Positions 8,793 to 64,000 of a stretch of DNA of 64,000 nucleotides are shown here, one piece after another (within the stretch, counting starts at the first letter, position 1; every line of letters starts with the position of its first letter). The position numbers were made by a program, and so were the translations under genes. The notes under the pieces were generated by a model. That model was given only the letters and a program-made list of their open reading frames with translations, was not told where the DNA came from and searched no databases. Origin of the DNA: an uncultured Alphaproteobacteria bacterium (GTDB lineage Bacteria; Pseudomonadota; Alphaproteobacteria; RF32; CAG-239); assembly GCA_934254675.1 (NCBI GenBank), contig CAKQLP010000002.1, positions 96,596 through 160,595 on the forward strand. Direction: 5' to 3'.

Positions 8793-9070
8793 AATGAGAT
8801 TTTACAGCTATTCGTCCTTATGCGCAATAGGCGGATTTAAGCAAGGATTTTGTTTTTTTATATCTGATATGATTTAGAAATTGTCTCAAAATTCTGCAAT
8901 GATAAATTTGTTAACTTTTTTAAGAAAGAATCGATTTTAAGGCCGTTTTTTTGCCCGTAGAAGCATATTGACTATTTTATTTTGGGTATAAAAACGAGAA
9001 AAAACTTTTTATTAGGGCGAATTTTTGCTATGTTTGGACAGTTTAACAAGTTTAACAAAAGAGGTATAAA

Positions 9071-11887
9071 GTGACTGAAGAAATTGAAAATACAGATGTC
9101 ATTAAGTCTGACAACATTACCCCGACAATGATTTCGGAGGAAATGCGCCGTTCATATTTGGATTATGCGATGAGCGTGATTGTGTCGCGTGCGTTGCCTG
9201 ACGCCCGTGATGGTATGAAACCTGTGCACCGCCGCATTATTTACGGAATGTATGAAAATGGTTATGATTGCACAAAGCCATATCGTAAATCGGCGCGTAT
9301 CGTTGGTGATGTTATGGGTAAATATCACCCGCATGGTGATAGTTCTATTTATGAGGCCATGGTGCGTATGGCGCAGCCGTTTTCAATGCGTTTGACTTTG
9401 GTCGATGGTCAGGGAAACTTTGGCTCTATGGATGGTGATGGCGCGGCCGCGATGCGTTATACCGAGGCCAGACTCGCCAAAGTGTCTTCTTGTTTAACCG
9501 ATAACTTAGATGAAGACACAGTTGACTTTATGCCGAACTATGATGAATCATTGCAAGAACCGACGGTTTTGCCGGCGCGTTTTCCTAACTTGCTGGTTAA
9601 TGGCGGCAATGGTATTGCCGTGGGTATGGCCACTAATATTCCGCCGCACAATTTGGGTGAGGTTATTGATGCTTGCTGTGCCTATATTGACAATCCGGAA
9701 ATCAGCATTGAAGAATTAGTCAGCATTGTTCCGGGACCGGATTTTCCGACCGGTGGTTTGATTTTGGGTTATGGCGGAGCCAAACAGGCTTATTTGACCG
9801 GCCGCGGTTCGGTTATGATGCGCGCTAAATGCACAATTGAAGAAATTCGCAAAGACAAAGAGGCCATTATTGTGCACGAAGTGCCGTATCAAGTTAATAA
9901 GGCCGCATTGGTTTCGCACATTGCCGAATTGGTTAAAGATAAAAAAGTTGAGGGTATTTCCGATATTCGTGATGAATCTGATCGTCAGGGTGTGCGTATT
10001 GTAATTGAAATCAAGCGTGATTTTCAGGCCGATGTGGTTTTGAACCAGTTGTATAAGTTTACGGCTTTGCAGACCAGTTTCGGTATGAATATGCTGGCTA
10101 TTAACGCCGGTCGTCCGATGATGATGAATTTGAAAGACATTATTTCAACCTTTATTGAATTTCGTGAAGAGGTAATCCGTCGCCGCACGATTTATCGCTT
10201 AAACAAGGCTCGTAATCGGGCGCACGTTTTGGTTGGTTTGGCTATTGCTGTGGAAAATTTGGACGAAGTTATCGAGCTGATTAAAACCGCGCCGACTCCG
10301 CAAGACGCTAAAGAATCTTTGGTTGCAAAAGCTTGGCCGGCCGCGACCATTGAAGATTGGGTTAAACTCATTGATGAGCCGGATAGAAAGGTTGAAAATG
10401 GTTTTTACCGCTTGTCTGATGACCAAGCCAAAGCCATTTTGGATTTGAAATTGCAACGCTTGACTGGTTTGGAACGTGACAAAATTCACGATGAATTGGT
10501 TTCTTTGGGTGAAGATATTAAAGAGTTTCTTTCTATTTTAGCCAGTCGTGAAAAACTTTATGGAATTATGCGCGATGAATTGGTGGCTGTTAAAGACGAA
10601 TACGCCACTCCGCGCTTGACCAAAATTGAAGACATTGAATACAACCAAGATATCGAGTCTTTGATTCAGCGTGAAGAAATGGTTGTTACCGTGACCGAGG
10701 CCGGTTATATCAAACGCGTGCCGTTAAACGCTTATAAGGCGCAACGCCGCGGCGGTAAAGGCAAATCGGGTATGACTACGAAGGAAGAGGATTTTGTGAC
10801 TCGCTTGTTTGTGGCCAGCACCCACACGCCGGTGTTGTTCTTCTCAAACAAAGGTATTGTTTATAAAATGAAAGTTTATAAACTTCCGTTGGGTTCGCCA
10901 ACTTCTAAGGGCAAACCATTTATTAATTTGTTGCCGTTGGTGCAGGGCGAAACCATTACCGCAATTATGAAACTTCCGGAAAATGAAGCCGATTGCGAGA
11001 ATTTGTCAATTGCTTTTGCAACCGCTAAAGGAAATATCCGCCGTAACAGCCTGATGGATTTTGTAAATGTTCAATCCAATGGTAAAATTGCGATGAAACT
11101 GGACGAGGGCGACAAACTTATCAATGTGGCTTTGTGCGATGACAGCAATGACATTATGTTAGCGGCCAAGAGCGGTAAATGTATTCGTTTTGCTGTGGAA
11201 GATTTACGTGTGTTTGTCGGTCGTAATTCTACCGGCGTGCGCGGTGTCAAATTGCAAGGCGATGATGAAGTTATCTCGATGTCGATTTTGAAACATTGCA
11301 CCGCCAGTGTGGAGCAACGCGACGAATATTTGCGTGTTTCCAACGCTATGAAGCGTATGGAAGCCGAAAGTGGCGTTGATGCTTGCATTTCTCCGGATCA
11401 AACCGGTTTGTTGAATTTGCTGGATACGGCTAAATTTGAAGAAATGCGCAAAGCTGAAGAGTTTATTTTGACTGTTACCGTAACCGGTTATGGTAAGCGC
11501 ACATCTTCGTATGAATATCGTGTGACCGGTCGTGGCGGTCAAGGTATTGCCAATATGGAAATGTCCCCGCGCAACAAAGAAGTTGTAAGTTCTTTCCCGA
11601 TTGAAGATGGTAAAGAAATTATGATGGTTACCGACGGCGGCAAGCTTATTCGTATGCCGGTTGATGATATCCGTGTGGCCGGACGTAAGACACAAGGCGT
11701 TATCTTGTTCCGCACGGGCGAAGATGAAAAGGTTGTTTCTGTAACATGGCTGGATGCAGATGCCGACGCCGATGAAGAAATTGACGAGGAAAACGGAAGC
11801 GAAGTTTTAGGAGATGCCGTGCCGGATGTTGATGAAACAGCGGAAACAGCGGTGAATGAGCCTGAAACACAAGAAGACGATGAATAA
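9071..11887 (+). CDS. gyrA: DNA gyrase subunit A
   Basis: 938 aa. GTG start behind AAGAGG. Motifs [21 protein letters not shown], active-site region [14 protein letters not shown]-like [11 protein letters not shown], beta-pinwheel CTD, acidic tail. Confidence 0.98.
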
Positions 11888-11949: not shown

Positions 11950-13041
11950 TTAATCCTTTCTAGGAACTTTAATATCCGCAAGTAAATCAAAACCGACATA
12001 CATTTGTCCGGTGCCAAAGCTATCTGCGGCGGAACTTTCACAGTATTTTGCGGCAGCCGCGGGGGAAACAGGTTTGAAACGCTGTTCTTTTGTTTCTATG
12101 CAATAATATTCTTGATCATCATTTTCATCGCAATTATAATCACCAACATCACTAGCATTAGCATATACAAATAGAACCCAAAATCCTAAAGTAGTTGGGT
12201 CGGCATCTTTTATCACAATTCCTTTCATATCAGCGTTTCGCCAATCATAAGTTAAAAGAGGTACGCATAAATTTTGGGGTACAAGAACACCGATAGATAA
12301 TGCAGAAAAACCACCTTCTTCATATTCTTCAGTGTATCCAAAGGGGTTGATAAGGGTTAAAGGAGAAGATAAACCAATCCTCTTTTCTCCTTCTAATTCA
12401 AAAATGTATTCTTGCGGTAAAAGCCCCATGTCTTGAATTTGATTATCAGCTCCTATTAGCCCTCCATCGAAAACATCATAAGCTTTTTGGCTGATATAAG
12501 CTGTTCGGATAGTGGCAGAAATATCGGAAATCATATTGACAATTTTATTGATATGAATTTTTTCCATGGCTTTAGTATAGCCGGCAATACCGCCAACGCT
12601 CAACACCCCGATGATGGCCAGAACGCCGAGCATTTCAATCATACTTCGCCCAATCGGGTTTGTCTGTCTGGTCACTGCTTGCGCTTTTCTCACTCGTGTA
12701 CCGCTTTGTACACGTCGTTCCAAAAGTGCGGCGCATTGACGCACAACATCCAAGCCCTTAGTGAAATTCTTCCTATTGTCATACTCGGGCTTGTCCCGAG
12801 TATCCACCATCAAGTCCATGTCATATTTAGGCTTAAAACACATCCTTCTCCTATTGTCATACTCGGGCTTGTCCCGAGTATCCATAGGAGTGTGTTCCGT
12901 ATTGATTCTCGGAATAAATCCGAGAATGACGTTTGTAAGGTGTTTTGTATGGATTCTCGGAATAAATCCGAGAATGACATTTAAAGTGTGTCCGAAAATG
13001 ACGGAGAATAGGGTATTCTGTTCATCCTTAAATTTTTTCAA
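11950..13041 (-). CDS. type IV pilin-like paralog 1, out of frame with its upstream SD/ATG at 13142 because of a (CT)7 tract
   Basis: Contains G-RSMIE-MLGVLAIIGVLSVGGIAGY (Gly at -1, Glu at +5, hydrophobic helix), then a divergent Cys-containing domain. The frame is open for 131 codons upstream of the Gly and is built of palindromic modules. Confidence 0.75.
   Translation of the reverse strand: MKKFKDEQNTLFSVIFGHTLNVILGFIPRIHTKHLTNVILGFIPRINTEHTPMDTRDKPEYDNRRRMCFKPKYDMDLMVDTRDKPEYDNRKNFTKGLDVVRQCAALLERRVQSGTRVRKAQAVTRQTNPIGRSMIEMLGVLAIIGVLSVGGIAGYTKAMEKIHINKIVNMISDISATIRTAYISQKAYDVFDGGLIGADNQIQDMGLLPQEYIFELEGEKRIGLSSPLTLINPFGYTEEYEEGGFSALSIGVLVPQNLCVPLLTYDWRNADMKGIVIKDADPTTLGFWVLFVYANASDVGDYNCDENDDQEYYCIETKEQRFKPVSPAAAAKYCESSAADSFGTGQMYVGFDLLADIKVPRKD
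12695..12975. repeat. cluster of 5 palindromic modules inside the leader of pilin-like gene 1
   Basis: CGTGTAC-N6-GTACACG (12695-12714). ATACTCGGG-CTTGT-CCCGAGTAT at 12781-12803 and 12859-12881. ATTCTCGGA-ATAAA-TCCGAGAAT at 12905-12927 and 12953-12975. Confidence 0.9.
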
Positions 13042-13156
13042 AAAGTGGCAAAAACCGCGTGTAGAAGCTTTAAAACGCTCTGAAATCGAATGTTTAGGAT
13101 TTACAGAGAGAGAGAGAGACCTTTTGATTGCTTATTTTTCATCTTTCTTTCCTCTT
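12998..13156 (-). other. conserved 5' expression cassette (SD AAGAGG, ATG 13142, (CT)7 13105-13118), copy 1 of 3
   Basis: About 150 nt nearly identical to 15053-15209 and 31596-31751. Confidence 0.85.
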
Positions 13157-14275: not shown

Positions 14276-15094
14276 TTATTTGGGAATATACATTCCAAAT
14301 ATACAATCTCCATCTTCGCAAGTAGAACAAGCTAAAGCTGTATCGGCAGGTGAAAATGGAATTTGTTTAATTTTTGAATTATTCTTAATAATCCAATTAC
14401 AATTAGTAAAATCGGGGGAGCAATAGGCTAAAGAGTTTGTTTCATCTGCAAAGTTTTCTAGCATTACCAATAATGGATTGAATGTTCGCCAATCAGATTG
14501 AGCTAACGCCATGCAGGATTCTTTTGAAGTTAAAAATAAGCCTAGCAAGAAAAAGTTTTCATCCATTGACAGGTTATCTTGAGCATTTCCAATAATAATA
14601 TCATTTCCAAAAGCGTCAAAAGCACTTAGTCTATCAGAGGCAATCATTTCATCAGGAATGATACCCATTTGAATAGCGGTTTCTGTGCTAAGGTTGTTAA
14701 AATCTTTCTGCTGGATGTAAAGTGTTTGGATATTATTTATTATCGTTGAAAATTGAGAAAGGACAGTGTTTGTTTTAAATTTAGTCATGGCTTTTGAGTA
14801 GCCGGCAATACCACCGACGCTCAACACACCGATGATGGCGAGGACGCCTAGCATTTCAATCATACTTCTGCCGCACTGCACGCCATCTGCTAGGAATTTT
14901 TGCGCTCGTGTACCTCTTTTGTACACGTCGCTTAAAAATCCCGTCGCATCTGGTGTACATTGTGGCAGAAGGTTGTTATTGTCATACTCGGGCGTGACCC
15001 GAGTATCCACAGAAGAGTGTTCCGCATGGATTCTCGGAATAAATCCGAGAATGACGGAGAATAGGGTATTCCGTTCCGACTCAAATTTTTTCAA
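14276..15094 (-). CDS. type IV pilin-like paralog 2, out of frame with its upstream SD/ATG at 15195 because of a (CT)7 tract
   Basis: QCG-RSMIEMLGVLAIIGVLSVGGIAGY motif and a divergent Cys-rich C-terminal domain. The leader carries palindromic modules. Confidence 0.75.
   Translation of the reverse strand: MKKFESERNTLFSVILGFIPRIHAEHSSVDTRVTPEYDNNNLLPQCTPDATGFLSDVYKRGTRAQKFLADGVQCGRSMIEMLGVLAIIGVLSVGGIAGYSKAMTKFKTNTVLSQFSTIINNIQTLYIQQKDFNNLSTETAIQMGIIPDEMIASDRLSAFDAFGNDIIIGNAQDNLSMDENFFLLGLFLTSKESCMALAQSDWRTFNPLLVMLENFADETNSLAYCSPDFTNCNWIIKNNSKIKQIPFSPADTALACSTCEDGDCIFGMYIPK
14907..15052. repeat. 3 palindromic modules in the leader of pilin-like gene 2
   Basis: CGTGTAC-N7-GTACACG (14907-14927), ATACTCGGG-CGTGA-CCCGAGTAT (14984-15006), ATTCTCGGA-ATAAA-TCCGAGAAT (15030-15052). 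Confidence 0.9.
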
Positions 15095-15209
15095 AAAGTG
15101 GCAAAAACCGCGTGTAGAAGCTTTAAAACGCCCTGAAATCGAATGTTTAGGATTTACAGAGAGAGAGAGAGGCCTTTGCTAAGCTTATTTTTCATCTTTC
15201 TTTCCTCTT
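15053..15209 (-). other. conserved 5' expression cassette (SD 15204-15209, ATG 15195, (CT)7 15158-15171), copy 2 of 3
   Basis: Nearly identical to 12998-13156 and 31596-31751. Confidence 0.85.
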
Positions 15210-15443: not shown

Positions 15444-15782
15444 ATGAATAGAGCTGTGATTTTGGGTGTTGTTTCTTTCTTTGTGCTTATGTACATTGGT
15501 GCCAAGTTTAATAACGCATTGCCTATTGATTTGGATGGAAATCAGGAAAACGTCGAATATCTGTTCGGGGCTTTCTTTTCTGCTCTAAGTCTTATTATAG
15601 CGACGTTCCAGCGTCACTACAATAAAAAGTTTATGGCGCTTGCGTTAGTGGTATATTTTATTTATCCGGCATTGTGCGGCTTAGAAACTATTGTTGCGGC
15701 AGTAGTTTTTTGCATTCTCGGCTTTGTCGTGATGAATAAAACAGTCGTAAGAAATCTGAAATATGATTTGGAACACCCATAA
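15444..15782 (+). CDS. small integral membrane protein (about 3 TM segments)
   Basis: ORF with three hydrophobic stretches. No family recognised. Confidence 0.5.
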   Translation: MNRAVILGVVSFFVLMYIGAKFNNALPIDLDGNQENVEYLFGAFFSALSLIIATFQRHYNKKFMALALVVYFIYPALCGLETIVAAVVFCILGFVVMNKTVVRNLKYDLEHP

Positions 15783-15910
15783 AAAAACATCGTTGTCTTG
15801 TATAAAGGCAACGATGTTTTTTTATGTTGAAATGTGTATAACCATAGGTAACTTTTTGAAAAAATCATCTTTTATTATATAATGCTAAAAGTTTAATTAG
15901 GACTGTACAG

Positions 15911-17074
15911 GTGAAAAGTATGGAAAATCAAGATAATAATAAAAAAATAGTCGTGTTGCAGGTTTTGCCGGAATTGGGGCAGGGCGGTGTGGAACTCGGA
16001 ACAATTGAGATTGCATCGGAATTGCAAAAACGCGGTATTGAAAATTATGTGGCGTCGGAAGGCGGACGAATGGAATATAATTTAGAACGCCTTAAAGTGA
16101 AACACTTTACTTTGCCTTTGAAAACGAAAAATATTTTTAAAATGTATTTAAATTCGTTGCGTTTAGCTAAAATTATTAAAAAATATGGGATTACAATTGT
16201 TCATGCCCGTTCTCGCGCGCCAGCATGGAGCGCATATTGGGCGGCAAAGCGTTGCGGTGTGCATTTTGTCACCACTTTTCACGGAACATATGGTTTGGGA
16301 CCATGGGGAATTAAAAAATTTTATAACAAAATTATGACTTATGGCGAACGAGTTATTGCTATTTCAAACCATATTAAGCAACATATTTTGAAAAATTATA
16401 AAACGGATGAAAATAAAATCCGCTTAATTCATCGTTGTGTCAATATGGAAAATTTTAATGTTGAAACCACATCGGCCGAAAGGATGATTAAATATTTGGA
16501 AGACAACAATATTCCAGAAGACAAACCGATTGTTACGCTTATTGGACGTTTGACCAATTGGAAGGGACAAAAACTTTTAATCGAAGCGCTTCATTTAATT
16601 GATGACGAAGACTTTTTTTGTGTGATGATTGGTGATGATCAGGGACGTAAAAAATATTCGGCGGAATTGCGCAAAATGATTGCTAAATATAATATGACCG
16701 AGCGTTTTTTATTTATTCGCAATGTAAAGGATATTCCGGCGGCAATGATGGTTTCTGACGTGGTGCTTTCAACCTCAATTGAACCTGAGGCGTTTGGTCG
16801 CATTGCCATTGAGGGACAAGCCATGGGGCGCGTTGTGGTTGCATCAAATATCGGTGGTTCGGTTGAAACGGTGATTGACGGCGTGACCGGTCGTCTTTAT
16901 GAAAGCACAAGTCCAAAGGCTTTGGCCGAAGCTATTAAATGGGCTTTGCATCTTTCAACAGAAGAAAGAGAAAAAATCGGCGCTGCCGGTATAAAAAATG
17001 TAAAAGAACATTTTACAAAACAAATTATGTGTGATAAAACGATAGAGGTTTATAAAGAATTGATAAACTTATAG
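15911..17074 (+). CDS. glycosyltransferase family 4 (GT-B, GT1-type)
   Basis: N-terminal GGVE motif, C-terminal E-x7-E region (EPEAFGRIAIEGQAMG). Confidence 0.85.
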   Translation: MKSMENQDNNKKIVVLQVLPELGQGGVELGTIEIASELQKRGIENYVASEGGRMEYNLERLKVKHFTLPLKTKNIFKMYLNSLRLAKIIKKYGITIVHARSRAPAWSAYWAAKRCGVHFVTTFHGTYGLGPWGIKKFYNKIMTYGERVIAISNHIKQHILKNYKTDENKIRLIHRCVNMENFNVETTSAERMIKYLEDNNIPEDKPIVTLIGRLTNWKGQKLLIEALHLIDDEDFFCVMIGDDQGRKKYSAELRKMIAKYNMTERFLFIRNVKDIPAAMMVSDVVLSTSIEPEAFGRIAIEGQAMGRVVVASNIGGSVETVIDGVTGRLYESTSPKALAEAIKWALHLSTEEREKIGAAGIKNVKEHFTKQIMCDKTIEVYKELINL

Positions 17075-17107
17075 TGAACTTTACTTAATAGTGAAAAGGT
17101 AGAAAAA

Positions 17108-19039
17108 ATGGTTAAAATTAAATTGCCTGATGGCAGTATCTTAGAAGAAAAAGATGGTGTTTCCGGATTGGAAATTGCCAATAAAATCAGCTCTAGTTTA
17201 GGAAAAGCGGCTTTAGCTGTTTCCGTTAACGGTACATTACAAGATTTGACAACCCCCATAACAACCGATTCTACAGTCACTATTATTACCGCTAAAGACA
17301 AAGAGGGTTTGCAAATTTTACGCCACTCTTGTTCTCATGTGATGGCTCAAGCGGTTAAGGAATTATGGCCTGATGCTCAAGTAACAATTGGTCCGGCTAT
17401 TGAAAACGGTTTTTATTATGATTTTTCATGCAAAGAAAACTTTACAACTGAAGATTTTGCTAAAATTGAAGCAAAAATGCATGAAATTGTAAAACGTGAT
17501 GAAAAAATTGAACGTGTTGTGATGTCTCGTGACGAAGCTATTGAGTTTTTTAAAAATTTGGGCGAGCATTATAAGGTGCAGATTATTGAAGATTTACCGG
17601 AAAACGAGACAATTACATTGTATCGTCAAGGAAATTACACAGATTTATGCCGTGGTCCTCATGTGCCGTCTACTTGCAAAATTGGTGATGCTTTCAAAAT
17701 TACCAAAGTTGCCGGAGCTTATTGGAGAGGAGACTCTAATAATGAAATGTTACAGCGTTTGTATGCAACAGCATGGCCAACAAAAAAAGAATTGGACAGT
17801 TATTTAAATATGCTTGAAGAAGCGGCAAAACGCGATCATCGAAAATTGGGTAAAGAAATGGATTTGTTCCATTTTGAACCGGAATACGCTCCGGGTGCTG
17901 TTTTTTGGCATGACAAAGGTTATCGCGTTTATCGCAAATTGATTGAGTATATGCGCAATCGTCAAGAACATAACGGCTATGAAGAAATTTCTACTCCGCG
18001 CATTATGGACAAGTGCTTATGGGTTACCTCTGGACACTGGGATAAATATGGCGCGCACAACTATTCTGGCAAAACCGAAGATGGTAAGGAATTTTGTGTT
18101 AAACCAATGAACTGCCCAGGTGGATTGCTTGTTTATAAACAAGGTGTTAAATCTTATCGTGATTTGCCATTGCGTATGGCCGAATTTGGTAAAGTTAACC
18201 GCTATGAAGCTTCTGGCTCTTTAATGGGGTTGATGCGCGTACGCGAATTTACGCAAGATGATGCGCATATTTTCTGCACGCCTGAACAAATGGAAGATGA
18301 ATGCATCCGCACAATGAAACTGATTTTTGATATTTATAAGGATTTTGGCTTTGATAATATCAAAATTTATCTTTCAACACGTCCAGACAGCATTTATCGT
18401 ATTGGTTCTGATGAAATTTGGGATTTGTGTGAAAATTCTTTGGCTCACGCTTTGGATAAACATGGTTACAAATATGAAATTAATGCCGGCGAGGGCGCTT
18501 TTTATGGTCCTAAATTGGAATTTATTTTGCGTGATGCCATTGGTCGTGAATGGCAATGCGGTACAATTCAGGTTGATATGAACTTGCCGCAACGGTTTGA
18601 TATTTCTTATATCGGCGAAGATGGTGAAAAACATCAACCGGTGATGTTGCATCGTGCGTTGTTTGGCTCTATTGAACGTTTCTTGGGAATTTTAATTGAA
18701 CACCATGCCGGAAAATTACCTTTGTGGTTGTCTCCGGAACAGGTTGTGGTGGCGCCTATTGTCAGTGATTTTGATGATTACGCCAAAGAAGTTGCCGATG
18801 TTTTATCTAAGGCTGGGTTATCTGTTAAAACGGATTTGCGTAATGAAAAAATCAATTATAAAGTTCGTGAACACTCTTTAGAAAAAATTCCGGTAATTGC
18901 TGTTGTCGGTGCTAAAGAAAAAGAAAACCGCACAGTGACAGTTCGACGTTTAGGCTCAGAAAAACAAGAAGTTATGTCATTGGATGATTTTGTTGCTCAG
19001 TTGCAAAAAGAAGCGGAAATGCCGCATCGTTTTGAATAA
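17108..19039 (+). CDS. thrS: threonyl-tRNA synthetase
   Basis: 643 aa. TGS domain, second additional domain (HSCSHVMA), class II motifs (FRVREFTQDDAHIF, GEGAFYGPKLEF). Confidence 0.97.
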   Translation: MVKIKLPDGSILEEKDGVSGLEIANKISSSLGKAALAVSVNGTLQDLTTPITTDSTVTIITAKDKEGLQILRHSCSHVMAQAVKELWPDAQVTIGPAIENGFYYDFSCKENFTTEDFAKIEAKMHEIVKRDEKIERVVMSRDEAIEFFKNLGEHYKVQIIEDLPENETITLYRQGNYTDLCRGPHVPSTCKIGDAFKITKVAGAYWRGDSNNEMLQRLYATAWPTKKELDSYLNMLEEAAKRDHRKLGKEMDLFHFEPEYAPGAVFWHDKGYRVYRKLIEYMRNRQEHNGYEEISTPRIMDKCLWVTSGHWDKYGAHNYSGKTEDGKEFCVKPMNCPGGLLVYKQGVKSYRDLPLRMAEFGKVNRYEASGSLMGLMRVREFTQDDAHIFCTPEQMEDECIRTMKLIFDIYKDFGFDNIKIYLSTRPDSIYRIGSDEIWDLCENSLAHALDKHGYKYEINAGEGAFYGPKLEFILRDAIGREWQCGTIQVDMNLPQRFDISYIGEDGEKHQPVMLHRALFGSIERFLGILIEHHAGKLPLWLSPEQVVVAPIVSDFDDYAKEVADVLSKAGLSVKTDLRNEKINYKVREHSLEKIPVIAVVGAKEKENRTVTVRRLGSEKQEVMSLDDFVAQLQKEAEMPHRFE

Positions 19040-19071
19040 TTCAGAGTGGTGTAAATCATTGGCTAAAAGAG

Positions 19072-19101
19072 CGAGGGTAACAGATTTTACCCTCGTTTTT
19101 T
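19072..19101 (+). terminator. intrinsic terminator after thrS
   Basis: CGAGGGTAA / TTACCCTCG stem followed by TTTTTT. Confidence 0.85.
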
Positions 19102-19190
19102 ATGGATAAAGCGTTTGACAAAAAATATTCTTTGTGTTAAACAATAATTACATAATGTAATTATTGTTAAACTATTAAAAATAAACATAT

Positions 19191-19613
19191 ATGGTTAGAT
19201 TTATTGTTGTAAATGCTGAATGTGTTGAAGCAAAAGCTTTTTGCATTGCTGTTGAGAGTTGTGAAAACTATGAAGTGGCACTGAAAGTTGATTCCAGCTA
19301 TTATTCAGAACTAGATAGCTGCAATACAGTAACAGAGGCTTTGGAATTGACGAAACCGTCTATGGTGGTTGATTTCAGTGTTGAACCTGCTGAAATAGGG
19401 GCGAATATGTATGCTTATGTGCTTGCCGGCGTACCTGCTGTCTTTCCAAGGGAAGAAGGGTTTTATGATGAAGCCGAAAGGGTTTTGATGGCTAAAAGCA
19501 TTGCTGATTGTCGTGGTTTGAGCACGATGGCTTTGCAAATGATTAATTCTTATATAAAAGATAGAATTACATTTGTGCAAAATTTTATGCAGTACAAGGA
19601 GTATTATATGTAA
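19191..19613 (+). CDS. hypothetical protein (140 aa)
   Basis: ORF only. Faint layout resemblance to the N-terminal half of DapB but lacks a GxxGxxG motif. Confidence 0.45.
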   Translation: MVRFIVVNAECVEAKAFCIAVESCENYEVALKVDSSYYSELDSCNTVTEALELTKPSMVVDFSVEPAEIGANMYAYVLAGVPAVFPREEGFYDEAERVLMAKSIADCRGLSTMALQMINSYIKDRITFVQNFMQYKEYYM

Positions 19614-19681
19614 TATCCTAACGGTGCTACAACTAACAATTTGATCGAAAGAGAGGTGTAAAAGCTTCTCTTTTTTTATAC

Positions 19682-19709
19682 AAAAAAAGCCCGCTCAATG
19701 GAGCGGACT
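19682..19709 (-). terminator. intrinsic terminator after ldh
   Basis: On the minus strand, AGTCCGCTC / GAGCGGGCT hairpin followed by TTTTTTT. Confidence 0.75.
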
Positions 19710-19727
19710 TTGAAAAATTAAATAAAG

Positions 19728-20675
19728 TTATTTACCTTCAATCATAGCCAAGGCTTTGTCTGTATATTCTTTCATAATTTCCGCACTGTTTTTCAGTTTG
19801 GCACGTTCTTCATCAGAAAGTTTCGGCGAAATAACATGGAAAATACCTTTTCTGTTGATAACAGTAGGCAATGACAGACTTACACCTTTAACGCCTTCAA
19901 TATCGTCGTGATGAGAAGACACGGTCAAAATAGCGTATTCATTGTTATTTATAGCGCGGCAAATTTGGGTTAAAGCACCGGCAATACCATAGAAAGTAGC
20001 GCCTTTGCCATCAATAATTTTGTAGGCCGCATTAACAACACCATCTTTGATTTCAGCTTTTTTAGCGTCATCTAAAACTTTGTTAACGCTTTCAGCATAT
20101 TCTTCCAAAGACAAAGTACCGGCTTCGGCGTTAGACCAAATCAAAACTTCGCTGTCACCATGTTCGCCGATTACGTCAGCATGAACTGATTTTGTGGAAA
20201 CACCCAGATAGAAGGCCAACAAGGTTCTGAAACGAGCCGTATCTAAAACTGTGCCGCTACCGATAACGCGTTCTTTAGGAAAACCGGAAAGTTTGCGGGC
20301 AACTTCAGTCATAATGTCGGCCGGATTAGCGGTGATTAATAAAATAGATTCAGGAGCGTATTTAGCAACTTGCGGAATAATGCTTTCAAAAATTTTGACG
20401 TTGCGACCTAACAAATCAATGCGGGTTTCACCTGGTTTTTGATTTGCACCGGCGGTTACAATTACAACTCCGCAACCTTCCAAATCTTCATAAGTTCCGG
20501 CTTTAATTTTTCCGGCGTGACCAAAAGGAGCGGCGTGAGCAATATCCATAGCTTCGGCTTGTGCTTTTTTTTCATTCATATCAATCAAAACAACCTTGTG
20601 CGCAACGCCTGTCATCATCAATGAAAATGCCGCAGCACTTCCAACAGAACCGGCACCGATAATACCAACTTTCAT
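19728..20675 (-). CDS. ldh: L-lactate dehydrogenase
   Basis: MKVGIIGAGSVGSA Rossmann motif, substrate loop GANQKPGETR (Gln rather than Arg at the discriminating position), GEHGDSE active-site motif. GGAG lies 8 nt before ATG 20675. Confidence 0.9.
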   Translation of the reverse strand: MKVGIIGAGSVGSAAAFSLMMTGVAHKVVLIDMNEKKAQAEAMDIAHAAPFGHAGKIKAGTYEDLEGCGVVIVTAGANQKPGETRIDLLGRNVKIFESIIPQVAKYAPESILLITANPADIMTEVARKLSGFPKERVIGSGTVLDTARFRTLLAFYLGVSTKSVHADVIGEHGDSEVLIWSNAEAGTLSLEEYAESVNKVLDDAKKAEIKDGVVNAAYKIIDGKGATFYGIAGALTQICRAINNNEYAILTVSSHHDDIEGVKGVSLSLPTVINRKGIFHVISPKLSDEERAKLKNSAEIMKEYTDKALAMIEGK

Positions 20676-21340: not shown

Positions 21341-21775
21341 ATGAAATATTTATTAATGGTTTGTTTGTTATTTCCTCTGTCGGCGCAGGCATTTTGTTTG
21401 GGTGAGGTTGGCAGTCAGCGTACAAATGGATTGGGCGAAACCGAATATAGAAACAGCAGCGGACAATTGCTGGGAACATCCCGCCAGAACGGATTGGGTG
21501 AGACCGAATATCGCGACAACAGCGGTCAATTGGTCGGCACGGCCAGACAGAACGGATTGGGCGAGACCGAATATCGGGACAACAGCGGACGATTGTCCGG
21601 AACTTCTCGCCAAAATGGATTGGGAGATACCGAATATCGAAATGGTAACGGCGTGTTAGTTGGAACCTCTCGCGAAAACAGTCTTGGAGATACCGAATAT
21701 CGTGACAACACCGGCAGACTAAATAAAACATCTCATCAAAACGGATTGGGTGAGACAATTTATTATAATTACTAG
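21341..21775 (+). CDS. secreted tandem-repeat protein
   Basis: Signal peptide MKYLLMVCLLFPLSAQA, then five and a half copies of the 21-aa unit NGLGETEYR(D/N)xSGxLxGTxRQ. Confidence 0.75.
   Translation: MKYLLMVCLLFPLSAQAFCLGEVGSQRTNGLGETEYRNSSGQLLGTSRQNGLGETEYRDNSGQLVGTARQNGLGETEYRDNSGRLSGTSRQNGLGDTEYRNGNGVLVGTSRENSLGDTEYRDNTGRLNKTSHQNGLGETIYYNY
21425..21772 (+). repeat. 63-nt in-frame tandem repeat, about 5.5 copies
   Basis: Period of 21 codons read from the translation (N29, N50, N71, N92, N113, N134). Confidence 0.9.
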
Positions 21776-21787
21776 GAGAATCGTTTT

Positions 21788-30482: not shown

Positions 30483-30518
30483 AAAAAGAGTCCCATGTTA
30501 CGGCATGGGACTCTTTTT
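30483..30518. terminator. bidirectional terminator between tig and pilin-like gene 3
   Basis: AAAAAGAGTCCCATG / CATGGGACTCTTTTT 15-bp stem. Confidence 0.85.
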
Positions 30519-31737
30519 AAGAAATAAAGTATAAAATTAAATCACAATTTTCAGTTGTGCAGCTTTTACAAAACTGGGTCATTTTTATCGGTGTCATGTT
30601 TTTAAAGCAGGTTTGTCGAGAGTCGGTACAATAGATTTTACCCCAAATAATAACATCAGTCGTATAATTGTTTTTTAATTCCAATCTAGAAATATTACCG
30701 TTTTCAGCATCAAAGGCTGTGATAGCTTTTATAATGTTTTTGCATTGATTTTCAGAACTTATGGCAAAAGCGTTATTTATGGTTTTAAGACTGATTCCCA
30801 AATAAAATGAGGTACTGTTACAAGGGGATAAAGAACCATCTGGTTGTCGGCATGTGTCAACACCATAAGATAAAATAAATTTATTTCCAAATCGATCCTG
30901 AGCAGTCTCATTAGAGATAAGCTTCATGTCGTCAGGTAAATATCCAAGAGCATTGATAGCGCCCATAAGGTCGTTTATTCTGATTGTTGATTGGTTACGG
31001 TAGTCTTGTTTGAAAGTGTCACGAAGTTCTAATATATGATAAATAAGGGAATTGATTTGTTCAAGTTGTTTGTGTGATTGATAAGTTTCCATGGCTTTGC
31101 TGAATCCCTGAATACCTCCGACGGATAGCACCCCAATAATGGTGAGAACGCCCAGCATTTCAATCATGCTTCGCCCAAGGGAAAACTCGTTTAGCTGGTG
31201 TCTGCTTGAAATTTTCGCGCTCGTGTACCTCTTTTGTACACGTCGCTTAAAAATTCCGGCGCATTCACGCACGCTATCCAAGTTTTCAAGTAAGATGTTA
31301 GGATTTTTTTCGCAGCTAGAAACCTCTTTATCTACACCACTCTCCGCGGTTTCAATACATTCATTTGTCTGTCTGGTCACTGCTTGCGCTTTTCTCACTC
31401 GTGTACTACTTTGTACACGTCGTTCCAAAATTGCGGCGCATTGACGCACGACATCCAAGCCCTTGATAAGACTCTGTTCTCTGTCATACTCGGGCTTGAC
31501 CCGAGTATCCAAAGAATAGTGTTTTGTATAGATTCTCGGAATAAATCCGAGAATGACGTTTAAAAATTGGTTAACATTTAAGGTGTGATTGAGAATGACG
31601 GAGAATAGGGTATTCCGTTCATCCTTAAATTTTTCCCAAAAGTGGCGAAAACCATGTGTAGAAGCTTTAAAACGCTCTGAAATCAAATGTTTAGGATTTA
31701 CAGAGAGAGAGAGACCTTTTGATTGCTTATTTTTCAT
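30517..31737 (-). CDS. type IV pilin-like paralog 3, intact and in frame from the cassette ATG ((CT)6), with a 188-codon leader
   Basis: MKNKQSKGLSLSVNPKH... runs through palindromic modules to LG-RSMIEMLGVLTIIGVLSVGGIQGF, then a divergent Cys-rich domain. SD AAGAGG lies 8 nt before the ATG. Confidence 0.8.
   Translation of the reverse strand: MKNKQSKGLSLSVNPKHLISERFKASTHGFRHFWEKFKDERNTLFSVILNHTLNVNQFLNVILGFIPRIYTKHYSLDTRVKPEYDREQSLIKGLDVVRQCAAILERRVQSSTRVRKAQAVTRQTNECIETAESGVDKEVSSCEKNPNILLENLDSVRECAGIFKRRVQKRYTSAKISSRHQLNEFSLGRSMIEMLGVLTIIGVLSVGGIQGFSKAMETYQSHKQLEQINSLIYHILELRDTFKQDYRNQSTIRINDLMGAINALGYLPDDMKLISNETAQDRFGNKFILSYGVDTCRQPDGSLSPCNSTSFYLGISLKTINNAFAISSENQCKNIIKAITAFDAENGNISRLELKNNYTTDVIIWGKIYCTDSRQTCFKNMTPIKMTQFCKSCTTENCDLILYFIS
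31222..31554. repeat. 4 palindromic modules in the leader of pilin-like gene 3
   Basis: CGTGTAC-N7-GTACACG (31222-31242), CGTGTAC-N6-GTACACG (31400-31419), ATACTCGGG-CTTGA-CCCGAGTAT (31486-31508), ATTCTCGGA-ATAAA-TCCGAGAAT (31532-31554). Confidence 0.9.
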
Positions 31738-31751
31738 CTTTCTTTCCTCTT
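31596..31751 (-). other. conserved 5' expression cassette (SD 31746-31751, ATG 31737, (CT)6 31702-31713), copy 3 of 3
   Basis: Nearly identical to the cassettes at 12998-13156 and 15053-15209 but one CT unit shorter. Confidence 0.85.
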
Positions 31752-39378: not shown

Positions 39379-39407
39379 TTGACATAAATTGCAAAGTTTT
39401 ATAGCTT
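39379..39407 (+). promoter_or_regulatory. candidate promoter of the pilin-4 leader
   Basis: TTGACA (39379-39384), 17-nt spacer, TAGCTT (alternative -10 TATAGC with a 15-nt spacer). Confidence 0.45.
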
Positions 39408-39412
39408 TATCT

Positions 39413-39632
39413 CTAGATAAAGGAGGCTTTATCTAGGGCGTCGAAAACCCTTTCAAATAATAACTAGTCGCTTTTGAGCATAAGCGACTTTAAATAGTTT
39501 ATGCCGACTTCTGTTCTGTTGGACGGATGTCGGCTGAATAAGGCTATATGCTGAATAAGCCGAGCTGTTTTATATTTAGTTATTATTTGAACGGTTTTCG
39601 AACATCCGCCCGCTTAAAGCGGGTTTTGTTTT
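39413..39632 (+). ncRNA. unclassified hairpin-rich leader or sRNA ending in an intrinsic terminator, directly upstream of pilin-like gene 4
   Basis: Perfect hairpins CTAGATAAAG-GAGG-CTTTATCTAG (39413-39436) and AGTCGCTT-N8-AAGCGACT (39466-39489), plus GCCGAC...GTCGGC (39503-39534). Direct repeat CTGAATAAG x2. Terminator CCCGC-TTAAA-GCGGG followed by TTTTGTTTT (39609-39632). Confidence 0.5.
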
Positions 39633-39658
39633 GTATAACAATAAACGGAGTTGGAAAC

Positions 39659-40468
39659 ATGTTCAATAATTTGAAAAGAAAAATAATGTTTTGCTTAGAT
39701 AAAGTCATTTTCGGCTTTATTCCGAGAATCCACTTGAAACATCATGCTTTATGCTGTCATTATCGGGCTTGTCCCGATAATCTAGATCCTCGGGTCAAGC
39801 CCGAGGATGACAAGAGGTTGGTCAAGCCCGAGGATGACTATAAAATAGCGCAGTGCGGTCGTTCTATGATTGAAATGCTGGGTGTGCTCGCCATTATCGG
39901 TGTCCTGTCCGTCGGAGGTATTGCCGGTTATTCCAGCGCCATGGAAAAATGGAAATTAAATGAAACATTGGTTGGGTATAATCATTTGATGTACGGTCTT
40001 TTAGAGTATGAGGTTTCTTTAAGAACTTTGGAATCCGGCAGTGGATATTATTTATTAGAAGATGTTATTTCCAGCTTAAATCTATTGCCGGAAAATTGGA
40101 AAAATACTGGCGGCTTTATATATGATCCTGCGGGAAACCGCTTTCGCCCGTTTATTCGTCATAACCGTTTTGTTTTTGATGTATATATAGGAAATACGAA
40201 AAAAGTTGAAGATAAAAGAGTTCAAGATGCGTTTTCATATAAAATGTGCTTAAACCTTATGAGTAACTTGCTCAAACCGATGCATAATCTGATTTATATG
40301 ACAGGTATTTATAGAGACAGCGGTTATAATAAATATCTGTATGGGGATTCATCTTGTGATAATGAAGGACAAAAATGCTTGAGCGACGCAACATTGTCTG
40401 ATATGCAAAATATATGTAACTCTTGTGTGCTGAATGAAGAGTTTTGCATATTCCTTATAGAATTCTAA
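39659..40468 (+). CDS. type IV pilin-like paralog 4 (67-codon leader, no CT tract)
   Basis: GGAG lies 8 nt before ATG 39659. QCG-RSMIEMLGVLAIIGVLSVGGIAGY motif and a divergent Cys-containing C-terminal domain. The track ORF start at 39548 runs through the leader terminator and is rejected. Confidence 0.8.
   Translation: MFNNLKRKIMFCLDKVIFGFIPRIHLKHHALCCHYRACPDNLDPRVKPEDDKRLVKPEDDYKIAQCGRSMIEMLGVLAIIGVLSVGGIAGYSSAMEKWKLNETLVGYNHLMYGLLEYEVSLRTLESGSGYYLLEDVISSLNLLPENWKNTGGFIYDPAGNRFRPFIRHNRFVFDVYIGNTKKVEDKRVQDAFSYKMCLNLMSNLLKPMHNLIYMTGIYRDSGYNKYLYGDSSCDNEGQKCLSDATLSDMQNICNSCVLNEEFCIFLIEF
39707..39838. repeat. palindromic modules in the leader of pilin-like gene 4
   Basis: Degenerate ATTTTCGGC-TTTAT-TCCGAGAAT (39707-39729), ATTATCGGG-CTTGT-CCCGATAAT (39759-39781), ATCCTCGGG-TCAAG-CCCGAGGAT (39786-39808), half copy GTCAAGCCCGAGGATGAC (39820-39838). 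Confidence 0.9.
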
Positions 40469-42965: not shown

Positions 42966-43145
42966 ATGCTTATAGCTTTCATTCTTAACCATACTTTAAA
43001 TGTCATTATCGGGCTTGTCCCGATAATCTGGATCCTCGAGTCAAACCCGAGGATGACAATAGGAAGAGGATGTGCGCCATACCCGAGGATGACAATATTA
43101 AAGGGGCATGTGTTAAGTCCGAGGATGACGAGAGTAGTGATGTAA
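42966..43145 (+). pseudogene. orphan pilin-leader remnant: palindromic-module cluster without a pilin body
   Basis: 59-codon ORF MLIAFILNHTLNVI... matches the leader segment SVILNHTLNV of locus 3. Modules are ATTATCGGG-CTTGT-CCCGATAAT (43005-43027), ATCCTCGAG-TCAAA-CCCGAGGAT (43032-43054), and two half copies ending GAGGATGAC. No GRSMIEM helix follows. Confidence 0.6.
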
Positions 43146-63059: not shown

Positions 63060-64000
63060 ATGTCGGATTATATTATCGAAACAGCCAAAGGAAAATGGGA
63101 AGTTGTTGTCGGACTGGAAATCCATTGCCAAATTATTTCCAAGTCTAAAATTTTTAGTGGAGCCTCTACCGAATTTGGTGATGATCCCAATGTTAATGTT
63201 TCATTTGTTGACGCCGGAATGCCGGGGATGTTGCCGACATTGAACAAACAATGCGTGCATCAGGCGGTTAAAACCGGTTTAGGTCTAAACGCTAAAATCA
63301 ATAAATATTCGGAATTTTCACGCAAAAACTATTTTTACGCGGATTTACCAAGCGGTTATCAAATCACACAATTTCGTTTTCCGATTGTGGGCGAGGGTAG
63401 TATCCGTATTGATTTAAGTGACGGTAGCTCTAAAATAATTGGTATTGAACGTATGCACATTGAGCAAGATGCCGGAAAATCAATTCATGATTTGAGCCCG
63501 CATAAAAGCTTTATTGACTTAAACCGTGCCGGTGTGGGTTTAATGGAAATTGTAACCAAACCAGATTTTCGCGCGCCGGAAGAAGCCGGAGCTTTTTTGC
63601 GTAAACTTCGTTCAATTTTACGCTATTTAGGAACTTGTGATGGCAATATGGATGAAGGTTCTATGCGTTGCGATGTTAATGTTTCAGTTCGACCATATGG
63701 TTCTAACGAATTGCGCACCCGTTGTGAAATGAAAAATGTAAATAGCGTTAAGTTTGTTATGCAAGCTATTGAAAATGAAGCAAAACGTCATGTTGAAGTT
63801 TATGAAAACGGTGGAGAAATCTGTCAGGAAACCAGACAATTTGATCCGGTCAGCGGACAGACCAAAGTTATGCGTAAAAAAGAATTCGCACATGATTATC
63901 GCTATTTTCCCGAACCTGATTTACCGCCGTTGGTTTTGAGTGATGAATATATTGACCAAATAAAAAAAGAAATGGTGGAACTTCCGGATGCTAAAAAGCA
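63060..64000 (+). CDS. gatB: Asp/Glu-tRNA amidotransferase subunit B (5' part, runs off the window)
   Basis: My own translation from ATG 63060: [40 protein letters not shown]... The frame stays open to the window end. Confidence 0.93.

Follow-up and report, generated by a model that had tools for sequence, protein, structure and literature searches.

The 64-kb stretch of DNA analysed here (the window) is part of a Hadza metagenome contig from an uncultured human-gut alphaproteobacterium. It carries four genes for pilin-like proteins, each preceded by an unusually long leader reading frame in which short palindromic DNA modules, predicted to form hairpins, are embedded. Three of these genes lie on the minus strand at about 12.65, 14.87 and 31.18 kb (loci 1, 2 and 3) and one on the plus strand at 39.86 kb (locus 4), and each sits alone among housekeeping genes (uvrB, lepB, rnc, era, gyrA, thrS, mdh, prfC, tig, gltX, recG, mfd and dnaG). 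The gene annotation of the window shows no pilus machinery near the pilin genes, and the gene lists of the window and of related loci show no recombinase adjoining them. An independent assembly (L121) is 100% identical to the window.

Matching the window to a type-1 template, GTCATNNTCGGRN5YCCGANNATCC, with at most two mismatches returned 13 hairpin modules against 0.00 expected from 100 dinucleotide-preserving shuffles. A second hairpin type, CGTGTAC-N6/7-GTACACG, matched four times against an expectation of 0. The window thus holds 17 full copies of both types, with three more half copies (CCGAGNATGAC) beside full ones at 39828, 43083 and 43119, in keeping with the count of about 17 full copies plus half copies offered by an earlier reading of the letters without database searches (the sequence-only reading). 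Every copy is upstream of one of the four genes encoding G|RSMIEMLGVLAIIGVLSVGG, where the bar marks the presumed cleavage site, or in an orphan cluster (43002–43129); as that reading had stated, the other intergenic regions of the window are free of modules at this threshold. Relaxing the scan to three mismatches added a single match, at 63894, which is non-palindromic. The modules occur in both orientations, as had been noted, including head-to-head pairs 47 nt apart (12856/12903, 14981/15028 and 31483/31530) and abutting pairs (39756/39784 and 43002/43030). The proposal that a single template with complementary NN pairs accounts for the sequence types was likewise upheld, all four pairs (AC/GT, TC/GA, TA/TA and CC/GG) being recovered. 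So was the embedding of the modules in frame, the translations VILGFIPRI, DTRxKPEYD, HYRACPDN, DPRVKPEDD and RRVQ..TRV being correct in the gene frame; the type-2 hairpin is read in two frames, as RRVQ..TRV and as DVYKRGTR.

The three minus-strand genes share a 5' block that consists of the ribosome-binding site (RBS) AAGAGGAAAGAAAG, an ATG, AAAAATAAG..., a CT tract and then GTAAATCC. At locus 1, RBS and ATG (13142–13140) occupy 13140–13156, the 17-mer recurring in ten distinct loci, and mark the start of the long leader open reading frame (ORF); the stretch 13101–13118 holds a (CT)7 tract, then G and a TAA in the same frame (13103–13101). The leader then stays open in the pilin frame for 160 codons (12652–13131) and contains type-1 hairpins at 12778–12805, 12856–12883, 12903–12930 and 12951–12978, a half copy near 12990–13006 and a type-2 hairpin at 12695–12714. 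Locus 2 repeats the arrangement, with RBS, ATG (15195–15193), (CT)7 (15171–15158) and TAA (15156–15154) at 15154–15209, and an open leader (14873–15153) with hairpins at 14981–15008 and 15028–15055 and a type-2 hairpin at 14907–14927. At locus 3 the block (31702–31751) has its ATG at 31737–31735 and a (CT)6 tract at 31713–31702, from which 406 codons are in frame; its leader (31177–31701) holds hairpins at 31483–31510 and 31530–31557 and type-2 hairpins at 31222–31242 and 31400–31419.

The length of the CT tract sets the reading frame. With (CT)6 the ATG reads in frame through all modules to G|RSMIEML (ON), while (CT)7 and (CT)8 place a TAA straight behind the tract, after 13 and 16 codons (OFF); locus 3 (31.7 kb) is accordingly an ON allele, and loci 1 and 2 (13.1 and 15.2 kb) are OFF alleles. 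Downstream of the post-tract stop, OFF alleles keep the pilin frame open throughout. At a locus encoding the identical protein P0016, the tract is (CT)8 in five assemblies (L144 and L146–L149) and (CT)7 in a sixth (L145). Among the database homologues, 19 of 120 are called from the MKNK start, and these alleles read GLS(LS)0-3VNPKH, equivalent to 3, 6, 9 or 12 CT units, plus two degenerate tracts; the remaining 101 of 120 cluster representatives are called from starts inside the leader, meaning that gene callers mis-start most of these pilin genes. The tract is the signature of slipped-strand translational phase variation, in which a change in (CT)n would put the ATG in or out of frame and so turn each pilin on or off at translation. 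As in other systems that vary by simple sequence repeats, length sets frame, the tract is polymorphic at one locus and the OFF ORFs are intact. In outer-membrane protein genes of Helicobacter pylori such as oipA, a CT repeat in the 5' coding region switches the gene on and off by slipped-strand mispairing (PMC10564699). The pilin switch shares with oipA a CT repeat just past the start codon, in the leader- or signal-coding region, that sets the downstream frame; it differs in lying 66–240 codons upstream of the mature protein, in belonging to a pilin family and in having palindromic repeats behind it. The interpretation given in the sequence-only reading stands in part, as it had missed both this upstream RBS, ATG and (CT)n switch and the prepilin cleavage site, which are the reason that the leader region is an ORF at all.

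In a set of nine different leaders, drawn from the window and from related contigs, the pilin frame contains no stop in 1,458 codons (4,374 nt), as against 66 and 112 stops in the other two sense frames; eight of the nine are OFF alleles. Leader length is 67–188 residues for the window genes and reaches 300 among homologues. Typical type IVb pilin leaders, which are cleaved by prepilin peptidase, have 13–30 residues. The leaders whose 5' ends differ (window locus 4, L114, L133 and L136) are likewise read in frame, from a Shine-Dalgarno (SD) sequence and ATG. In an alignment of 38 homologues, G188 (position -1) and R189–L198 are invariant, and four unrelated modules can precede the invariant G (pre-G modules). 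The probable cleavage site is fixed by a canonical paralogue (L144, 668–1306, minus strand) with a 9-residue leader, MFKEINQSG|RSMIEML, a strong SD and Bundlin/PilS Pfam matches; this gene, which has neither hairpins nor a CT tract, is probably the major pilin of the lineage. Most members show the same cassette order: RBS, ATG, about eight codons, (CT)n, a conserved block of roughly 35–40 codons, a variable run of palindromic modules, a pre-cleavage module drawn from about four alternatives and, last, G|RSMIEMLGVLAIIGVLSVGG.

Locus 2, whose cleavage-site G and mature domain span 14276–14872 (minus strand), matches Pfam Bundlin at 40.2 bits (cut-off 22.3) and NCBIfam IV_pilin_GFxxxE (TIGR02532) at 16.3 bits, exactly the cut-off, the other loci scoring below it. 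Loci 1, 3 and 4 gave no Pfam Bundlin/PilS match; many homologues have precomputed ones (PF05307/PF08805). At locus 1 the G codon (12651–12649) of G|RSMIEML and the mature pilin-like domain occupy 11950–12651, and at locus 3 the corresponding segment is 30517–31176, both on the minus strand. The best sequence match in the PDB is bundlin (1zwt), a weak one at E = 0.005. An AlphaFold2 (AF2) model of the locus 3 protein has a predicted local distance difference test (pLDDT) score mostly of 73–94 from about residue 210 and a long N-terminal helix at residues 187–249; in the leader, pLDDT is below 50 for 161 of 195 residues and no 10-residue block exceeds 55. With type IVb pilins such as BfpA, PilS and TcpA these proteins share the G|xxxxE motif, a hydrophobic alpha-1 helix and, in some members, the Bundlin/PilS match, and they differ in their several-fold longer leaders, their Arg at +1 and their singly dispersed genes. 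We treat the genes as type IVb-like prepilins with abnormally long leaders that would be cleaved at G.

Locus 4 (plus strand) and the orphan cluster depart from this layout. The 67-codon leader of locus 4 (MFNNLKRK...IAQCG, 39659–39859) begins at an ATG at 39659 behind a GGAG RBS and has no CT tract; it contains in-frame hairpins at 39704–39731, 39756–39783 and 39784–39811 and a half copy at 39821–39838, and is followed by the mature pilin-like domain (39860–40468). Directly 5' of its RBS and ATG lies an element (39381–39645, plus strand) comprising a promoter-like TTGACA-N17-TATAGC, about 210 nt of structured and apparently non-coding sequence and, at its end, a strong terminator (CCGCCCGCTTAAAGCGGGTTTTGTTTTG). 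Its best Rfam match, sRNA-Xcc1, scores 24.5 bits, far below the threshold of 53, and the element could be a small RNA or an attenuator-type leader. The orphan cluster (42966–43145, plus strand) is a leader-only remnant (HYRACPDNLDPRVKPEDD...SDVSTSIFEHT*) without a pilin domain, with hairpins at 43002–43029 and 43030–43057 and the half copies at 43083 and 43119, and it is kept as a leader-only ORF in another sample (L132). Such clusters are common to samples (window 42966–43145; L132 1–330; L140 1–330), some finish in a short hydrophobic tail (...NLINKSVFLVSVMFIFLIKYQIL), and they may be pseudogene remnants or small ORFs.

Within the leaders, each module type keeps a fixed codon phase. Forward TC/TT-type modules are in phase 0 in 21 of 21 cases (VILGFIPRI), reverse modules of all types in phase 0 in 20 of 20 (D.R.KPE.D) and forward TA-type modules in phase 1 in three of three (HYRACPDN). 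Since the commonest module is free of stops in each of its three forward frames, the fixed phase is not merely stop avoidance. Neighbouring modules are spaced 48 nt (16 codons) apart in 14 of 25 instances, and most other spacings are multiples of 3. Fixed phase and 48-nt spacing together argue that the modules spread as in-frame blocks and not by independent insertion, which sustains the earlier view that random spread of miniature inverted-repeat transposable elements is not the explanation. The encoded peptide is without amino-acid selection, as indicated by two lines of evidence: i) over the 40 codons after the tract, variable sites number 14, 21 and 15 at codon positions 1, 2 and 3, with no third-position bias, and ii) the two orientations encode unrelated peptides. 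On the same grounds, the suggestion in the sequence-only reading that the modules function as leader-peptide units is unlikely.

At the nucleic-acid level, the hairpin is preserved through compensatory stem changes. Of 78 distinct units from the lineage, 56 have a perfect 9-bp stem and seven a single mismatch; the loop-closing pair (positions 12 and 18) is G-C in 34 and A-T in 31, the GTCAT head is present in 73–76, and in L133 the core is doubly compensated (TCTAGG...CCTAGA). Entropy per position is 0.1–0.8 bit in the core (mostly below 0.5) and 1.2–2.0 bits in the 12-nt flanks (mostly above 1.5). The pre-G modules, too, form extended hairpins, about 100 nt long. Folding of two leader mRNAs, which the sequence-only reading had put forward as a check on its hairpins, gave z = -6.0 and -5.8 relative to shuffles. 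No Rfam family was found in the whole window at gathering thresholds or in two leader regions at permissive thresholds, and promoter and terminator scans of two leaders revealed no promoter-like excess inside them and no intrinsic terminators at the hairpins. Operator sites, that is, palindromic protein-binding sites in double-stranded DNA, were considered and rejected because different NN pairs covary within a copy.

Comparison of orthologous loci demonstrated rapid rebuilding of the leaders. In another Hadza sample, the ortholog of the 31-kb locus has flanks 97.3–97.5% identical to those of the window and an ungapped mature domain 97.3% identical, while its leader measures 731 nt against 564 nt in the window and can be aligned only in patches of 77–94%. 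It carries six hairpins against two at the window's locus, a gain or loss of modules of the kind that the sequence-only reading had proposed to look for. Alleles with mature domains of 96% identity or more include every one of the four pre-G types, with hairpin numbers between 0 and 6, tandem 48-nt units differ in number, and chimeric hairpins join arms of different types (TC/GT in L135, AC/GA in L138). Paralogous leaders within the window genome are only 74–92% identical. Leaders rebuilt beside flanks and mature domains of about 97% identity imply that the leader recombines among paralogues far faster than the gene diverges. A shufflon, in which an Rci-like recombinase acts at asymmetric sfx sites to exchange C-terminal segments, was rejected: the repeats here are symmetric hairpins of the N-terminal leader, between strains the mature domain keeps its order at 97% identity, and the gene lists show no recombinase beside the loci.

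We also traced the modules beyond the window. In about 148 kb of lineage DNA (the window and four 21-kb loci), all true modules lie in pilin leaders except those of the orphan cluster. A search of 1.84 billion representative proteins with the leader alone gave 72 matches, all of them either pilins that have the cleavage motif or short fragments of leader only, and in none of the 72 was the leader fused to another protein family. A metagenome scan for the AT-loop module found 15 loci, many ending at contig ends within repeats. In other gut lineages, the leader starts are unrelated and lack the CT tract, yet in-frame hairpins stand just before the cleavage site. Some more distant pilin leaders (P0063, P0109 and P0166–P0175) contain peptides such as LLRFARNDD and LRRCTPRNDA, which we take to resemble read-throughs of another GTCAT...-type hairpin repeat, one that is common in other phyla; if so, several palindrome families have entered pilin leaders.

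Among genomes searched at one per species, the template gave at least 143 matches in at least 120 loci, which agrees with the kinship that the sequence-only reading had noted with GTCAT...ATCC hairpins of other Proteobacteria. The matches listed are mostly from Alphaproteobacteria (Bosea, Shinella, Agrobacterium, Brevundimonas, Martelella and others). NN positions are complementary in 133 of the 143 listed matches, in 13 complementary types, extending the stem-preserving changes seen in the window; the loop is CTTGA or CTTGT in 111 of the 143, and many have an inverted partner within 160 nt. The Agrobacterium copy is an intergenic inverted doublet. Rhizobial plasmids and chromids hold the template at 423 places in 121 records, and none of the 28 listed matches in annotated rhizobial records has an annotated feature under it. 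From this intergenic placement in Agrobacterium and rhizobia, the family is in general, in Rhizobiaceae and many other Alphaproteobacteria, an extragenic repeat like repetitive extragenic palindromic (REP) sequences and bacterial interspersed mosaic elements (BIMEs); its restriction to pilin leaders is a trait of the low-GC gut lineages. The exclusive tie to one gene family asserted in the sequence-only reading therefore holds for the 148 kb of lineage DNA and the 72 protein matches, and fails elsewhere. The listed matches also include a few from Patescibacteria (L014, L037 and L062), spirochaetes (L081, L092 and L103) and Chloroflexi and one from a Neisseria metagenome-assembled genome (L105). 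Copies in L105 and in the named patescibacterial and spirochaetal records have the CTTGA loop, and no pilin motif was found near them; such copies suggest horizontal spread or a widely shared recognising enzyme.

A model for the leaders emerges that we hold to be moderately probable, in which the REP-like palindromes are in-frame passengers in a leader that is translated as part of a phase-variable family of pilins and then probably removed. The leader would be translated when the tract is ON and then removed, presumably by prepilin peptidase, at the invariant G; removal after translation would leave staying open in one frame as the only visible constraint. Hairpins of a widespread alphaproteobacterial palindromic family would persist inside this permissive segment, and the modules would multiply and move between paralogous leaders as 16-codon units or doublets, by tandem duplication, homologous recombination or gene conversion. 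If true, the leaders furnish a second independent case, after Rickettsia, of palindromic repeats in frame within genes, in which the probable removal of the host segment would explain the tolerance and the mode of spread can be read from blocks that recombination exchanges in frame.

Several observations weigh against the passenger model. Perfect stems amid near-random flanks are poorly explained by a passenger role and hint at a selected function, as does the fact that leaders from several divergent lineages, whose 5' ends are unrelated, all bear hairpins. No prepilin peptidase, pilus machinery or transposase resembling REP-associated tyrosine transposases (RAYTs) was seen in the 64 kb, for which annotation is incomplete. 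Pfam and NCBIfam pilin thresholds are reached by locus 2 only, the +1 Arg is unusual for prepilins, and a Foldseek search of the AF2 model against the PDB found nothing significant, the floppy leader being the probable reason. Leader translation, cleavage at G and switching are all deduced from sequence.

Because the stems stay perfect while the flanks drift, and the hairpins recur in divergent lineages, functional readings stay alive; the recombination-substrate and mRNA-structure roles are both possible. In the broadest of these readings, which we regard as conceivable but doubtful, the palindromes are under selection for their structure, as one component of a portable expression cassette (promoter, ATG, CT tract, hairpin array and cleavage site) that governs a large phase-variable set of type IVb-like pilins in uncultured gut Alphaproteobacteria; the hairpins would make the OFF state tight on ribosome-free mRNA, promote cassette exchange among paralogues, or do both. 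Were this true, a REP-like family would have been co-opted inside a coding region for one gene family.

The first of these roles, taken by itself, makes the hairpins a selected part of the switch at the RNA level: they would block internal initiation or re-initiation on the ribosome-free OFF mRNA and shape its decay or polarity, and would be melted by translating ribosomes in the ON state. Leader mRNAs that fold far better than shuffles, stems kept by compensatory change as flanks drift, hairpins that are constant in the leaders of several lineages and pre-G modules that form extended hairpins of about 100 nt are all consistent with it. However, leaders without a CT tract (locus 4, L114, L133 and L136) bear hairpins too, which unties the hairpins from the switch; the occurrence of each type in both orientations fits a DNA-level or purely stem-level constraint better; and the hairpins, lacking U-tracts, are not intrinsic terminators and have no Rfam match. 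We judge the RNA-level role rather unlikely.

The second role, which strikes us as quite improbable, casts the hairpins as DNA-level substrates for recombination or slippage, kept because they help leader cassettes (promoter, CT tract and leader) to be swapped between paralogues, duplicated and deleted, and would add a second layer of variation. It would account for leaders rebuilt between strains that have 97% identical flanks and mature domains, for near-identical mature domains with all four pre-G types, and for the chimeric hairpins of L135 and L138 and the varying number of 48-nt units; the same pattern, however, is expected passively from any dispersed repeat. Variation falls only in a segment that the protein probably loses, where no adaptive pay-off is visible, the 74–92% identity of paralogous leaders argues against very recent conversion, and no dedicated recombinase was seen in the window.

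Two further explanations are highly unlikely. In one, the region is an untranslated 5' leader or promoter, the pilins starting just before G|RSMIEML and the long ORF being a by-product of stop-poor palindromes; possible GTG starts 4–9 codons before G in pre-G types i and ii, a nearly stop-free antisense frame and the 13–30 residues established for type IVb leaders speak for it, but the candidate GTGs lack an SD, type iii pre-G modules lack any start codon for more than 10 codons before G, SD and ATG occur in the same frame from four different 5' ends, stops number 0 against 66 and 112 across the nine leaders, and a post-start CT tract with in-frame alleles differing by three units has no rationale in an untranslated region. 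In the other, the modules are functional peptide units of a pro-domain (serving, for example, chaperoning, targeting or peptidase recognition), as the fixed reading phase per type and the recurrence of a charged motif, LD.R.KPE.D, just before the cleavage site of short-leader relatives might suggest; against this, the unrelated forward and reverse peptides (VILGFIPRI versus DSRNKSEND) are both used, third-position bias is absent, module number varies from 0 to 8 or more on near-identical mature domains, AF2 confidence is mostly below 50 with no block above 55, and the same DNA is extragenic in other genera.

Among known systems, the nearest to the passenger model are the Rickettsia palindromic elements (RPEs) described by Ogata et al., which are 100–150 bp long, specific to Rickettsia and found in frame across many unrelated genes. 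Shared with RPEs are in-frame palindromes in alphaproteobacterial genes, tolerated in functionally unimportant parts of proteins; the modules differ in their 27–28-nt cores, their place in the leader of one gene family, their 48-nt lattice and their spread by recombination. The dispersal of RPEs over many unrelated genes has no parallel among the 72 protein matches, and an NCBIfam scan of the four pilin proteins, with a library that we believe includes an RPE1 model, gave no RPE-family match. Neisseria intergenic mosaic elements and dRS3 are GTCAT...ATCC-flanked intergenic hairpins that form palindrome mosaics at variable pilin loci. Pilin variation in Neisseria alters the mature protein by gene conversion, whereas here the mature domain is stable and the leader reshuffled.

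REP sequences are defined by a conserved 5' GT[AG]G head. The modules resemble REPs, BIMEs and REP doublets forming hairpins (REPINs) in being short, high-copy palindromes with invariant flanks that form inverted doublets, in the window and in other genomes; they differ in having a GTCAT head and in that the window copies, the orphan cluster aside, are inside open leader ORFs, extragenic placement being found only in other genera. REP and REPIN elements are associated with RAYT transposases, of which Group 1 is reported to be rare in Alphaproteobacteria (PMC5581495). No Y1_Tnp-like (RAYT) product was present among the subset of window ORFs scanned or in precomputed gene lists. A full-text literature search did not find the hairpin sequence, and the literature on Rhizobium-specific intergenic mosaic elements (RIMEs) and on RAYTs in Alphaproteobacteria gave no description of the hairpin family. 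A REP-like family confined to the long leader of CT-switched type IVb-like pilins in uncultured human-gut Alphaproteobacteria thus appears to be undescribed in the searchable literature. The leaders point to a so far undescribed family of type IVb-like pilins in uncultured gut Alphaproteobacteria, from Hadza and other metagenomes, that is phase-variable through a CT repeat and has leaders of exceptional length; the family is of relevance to surface variation of gut commensals.

Three other features were observed. In L122, an insertion of about 800 nt (9034–9830) that contains simple-sequence repeats and a called 199-aa ORF lies between a TerB-like gene and the pilin promoter, and is absent from the orthologous locus of the window. 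In L142, a phage-type integrase and two resolvase genes (15765–20484) are found 5–9 kb downstream of a further pilin paralogue on the same 411-kb contig; they probably belong to an integrated mobile element unrelated to the leaders. Within the window, a 63-nt (21-codon) unit is repeated five times in tandem at 21424–21777, the copies being 61–100% identical, within an ORF without a Pfam family (21341–21775).

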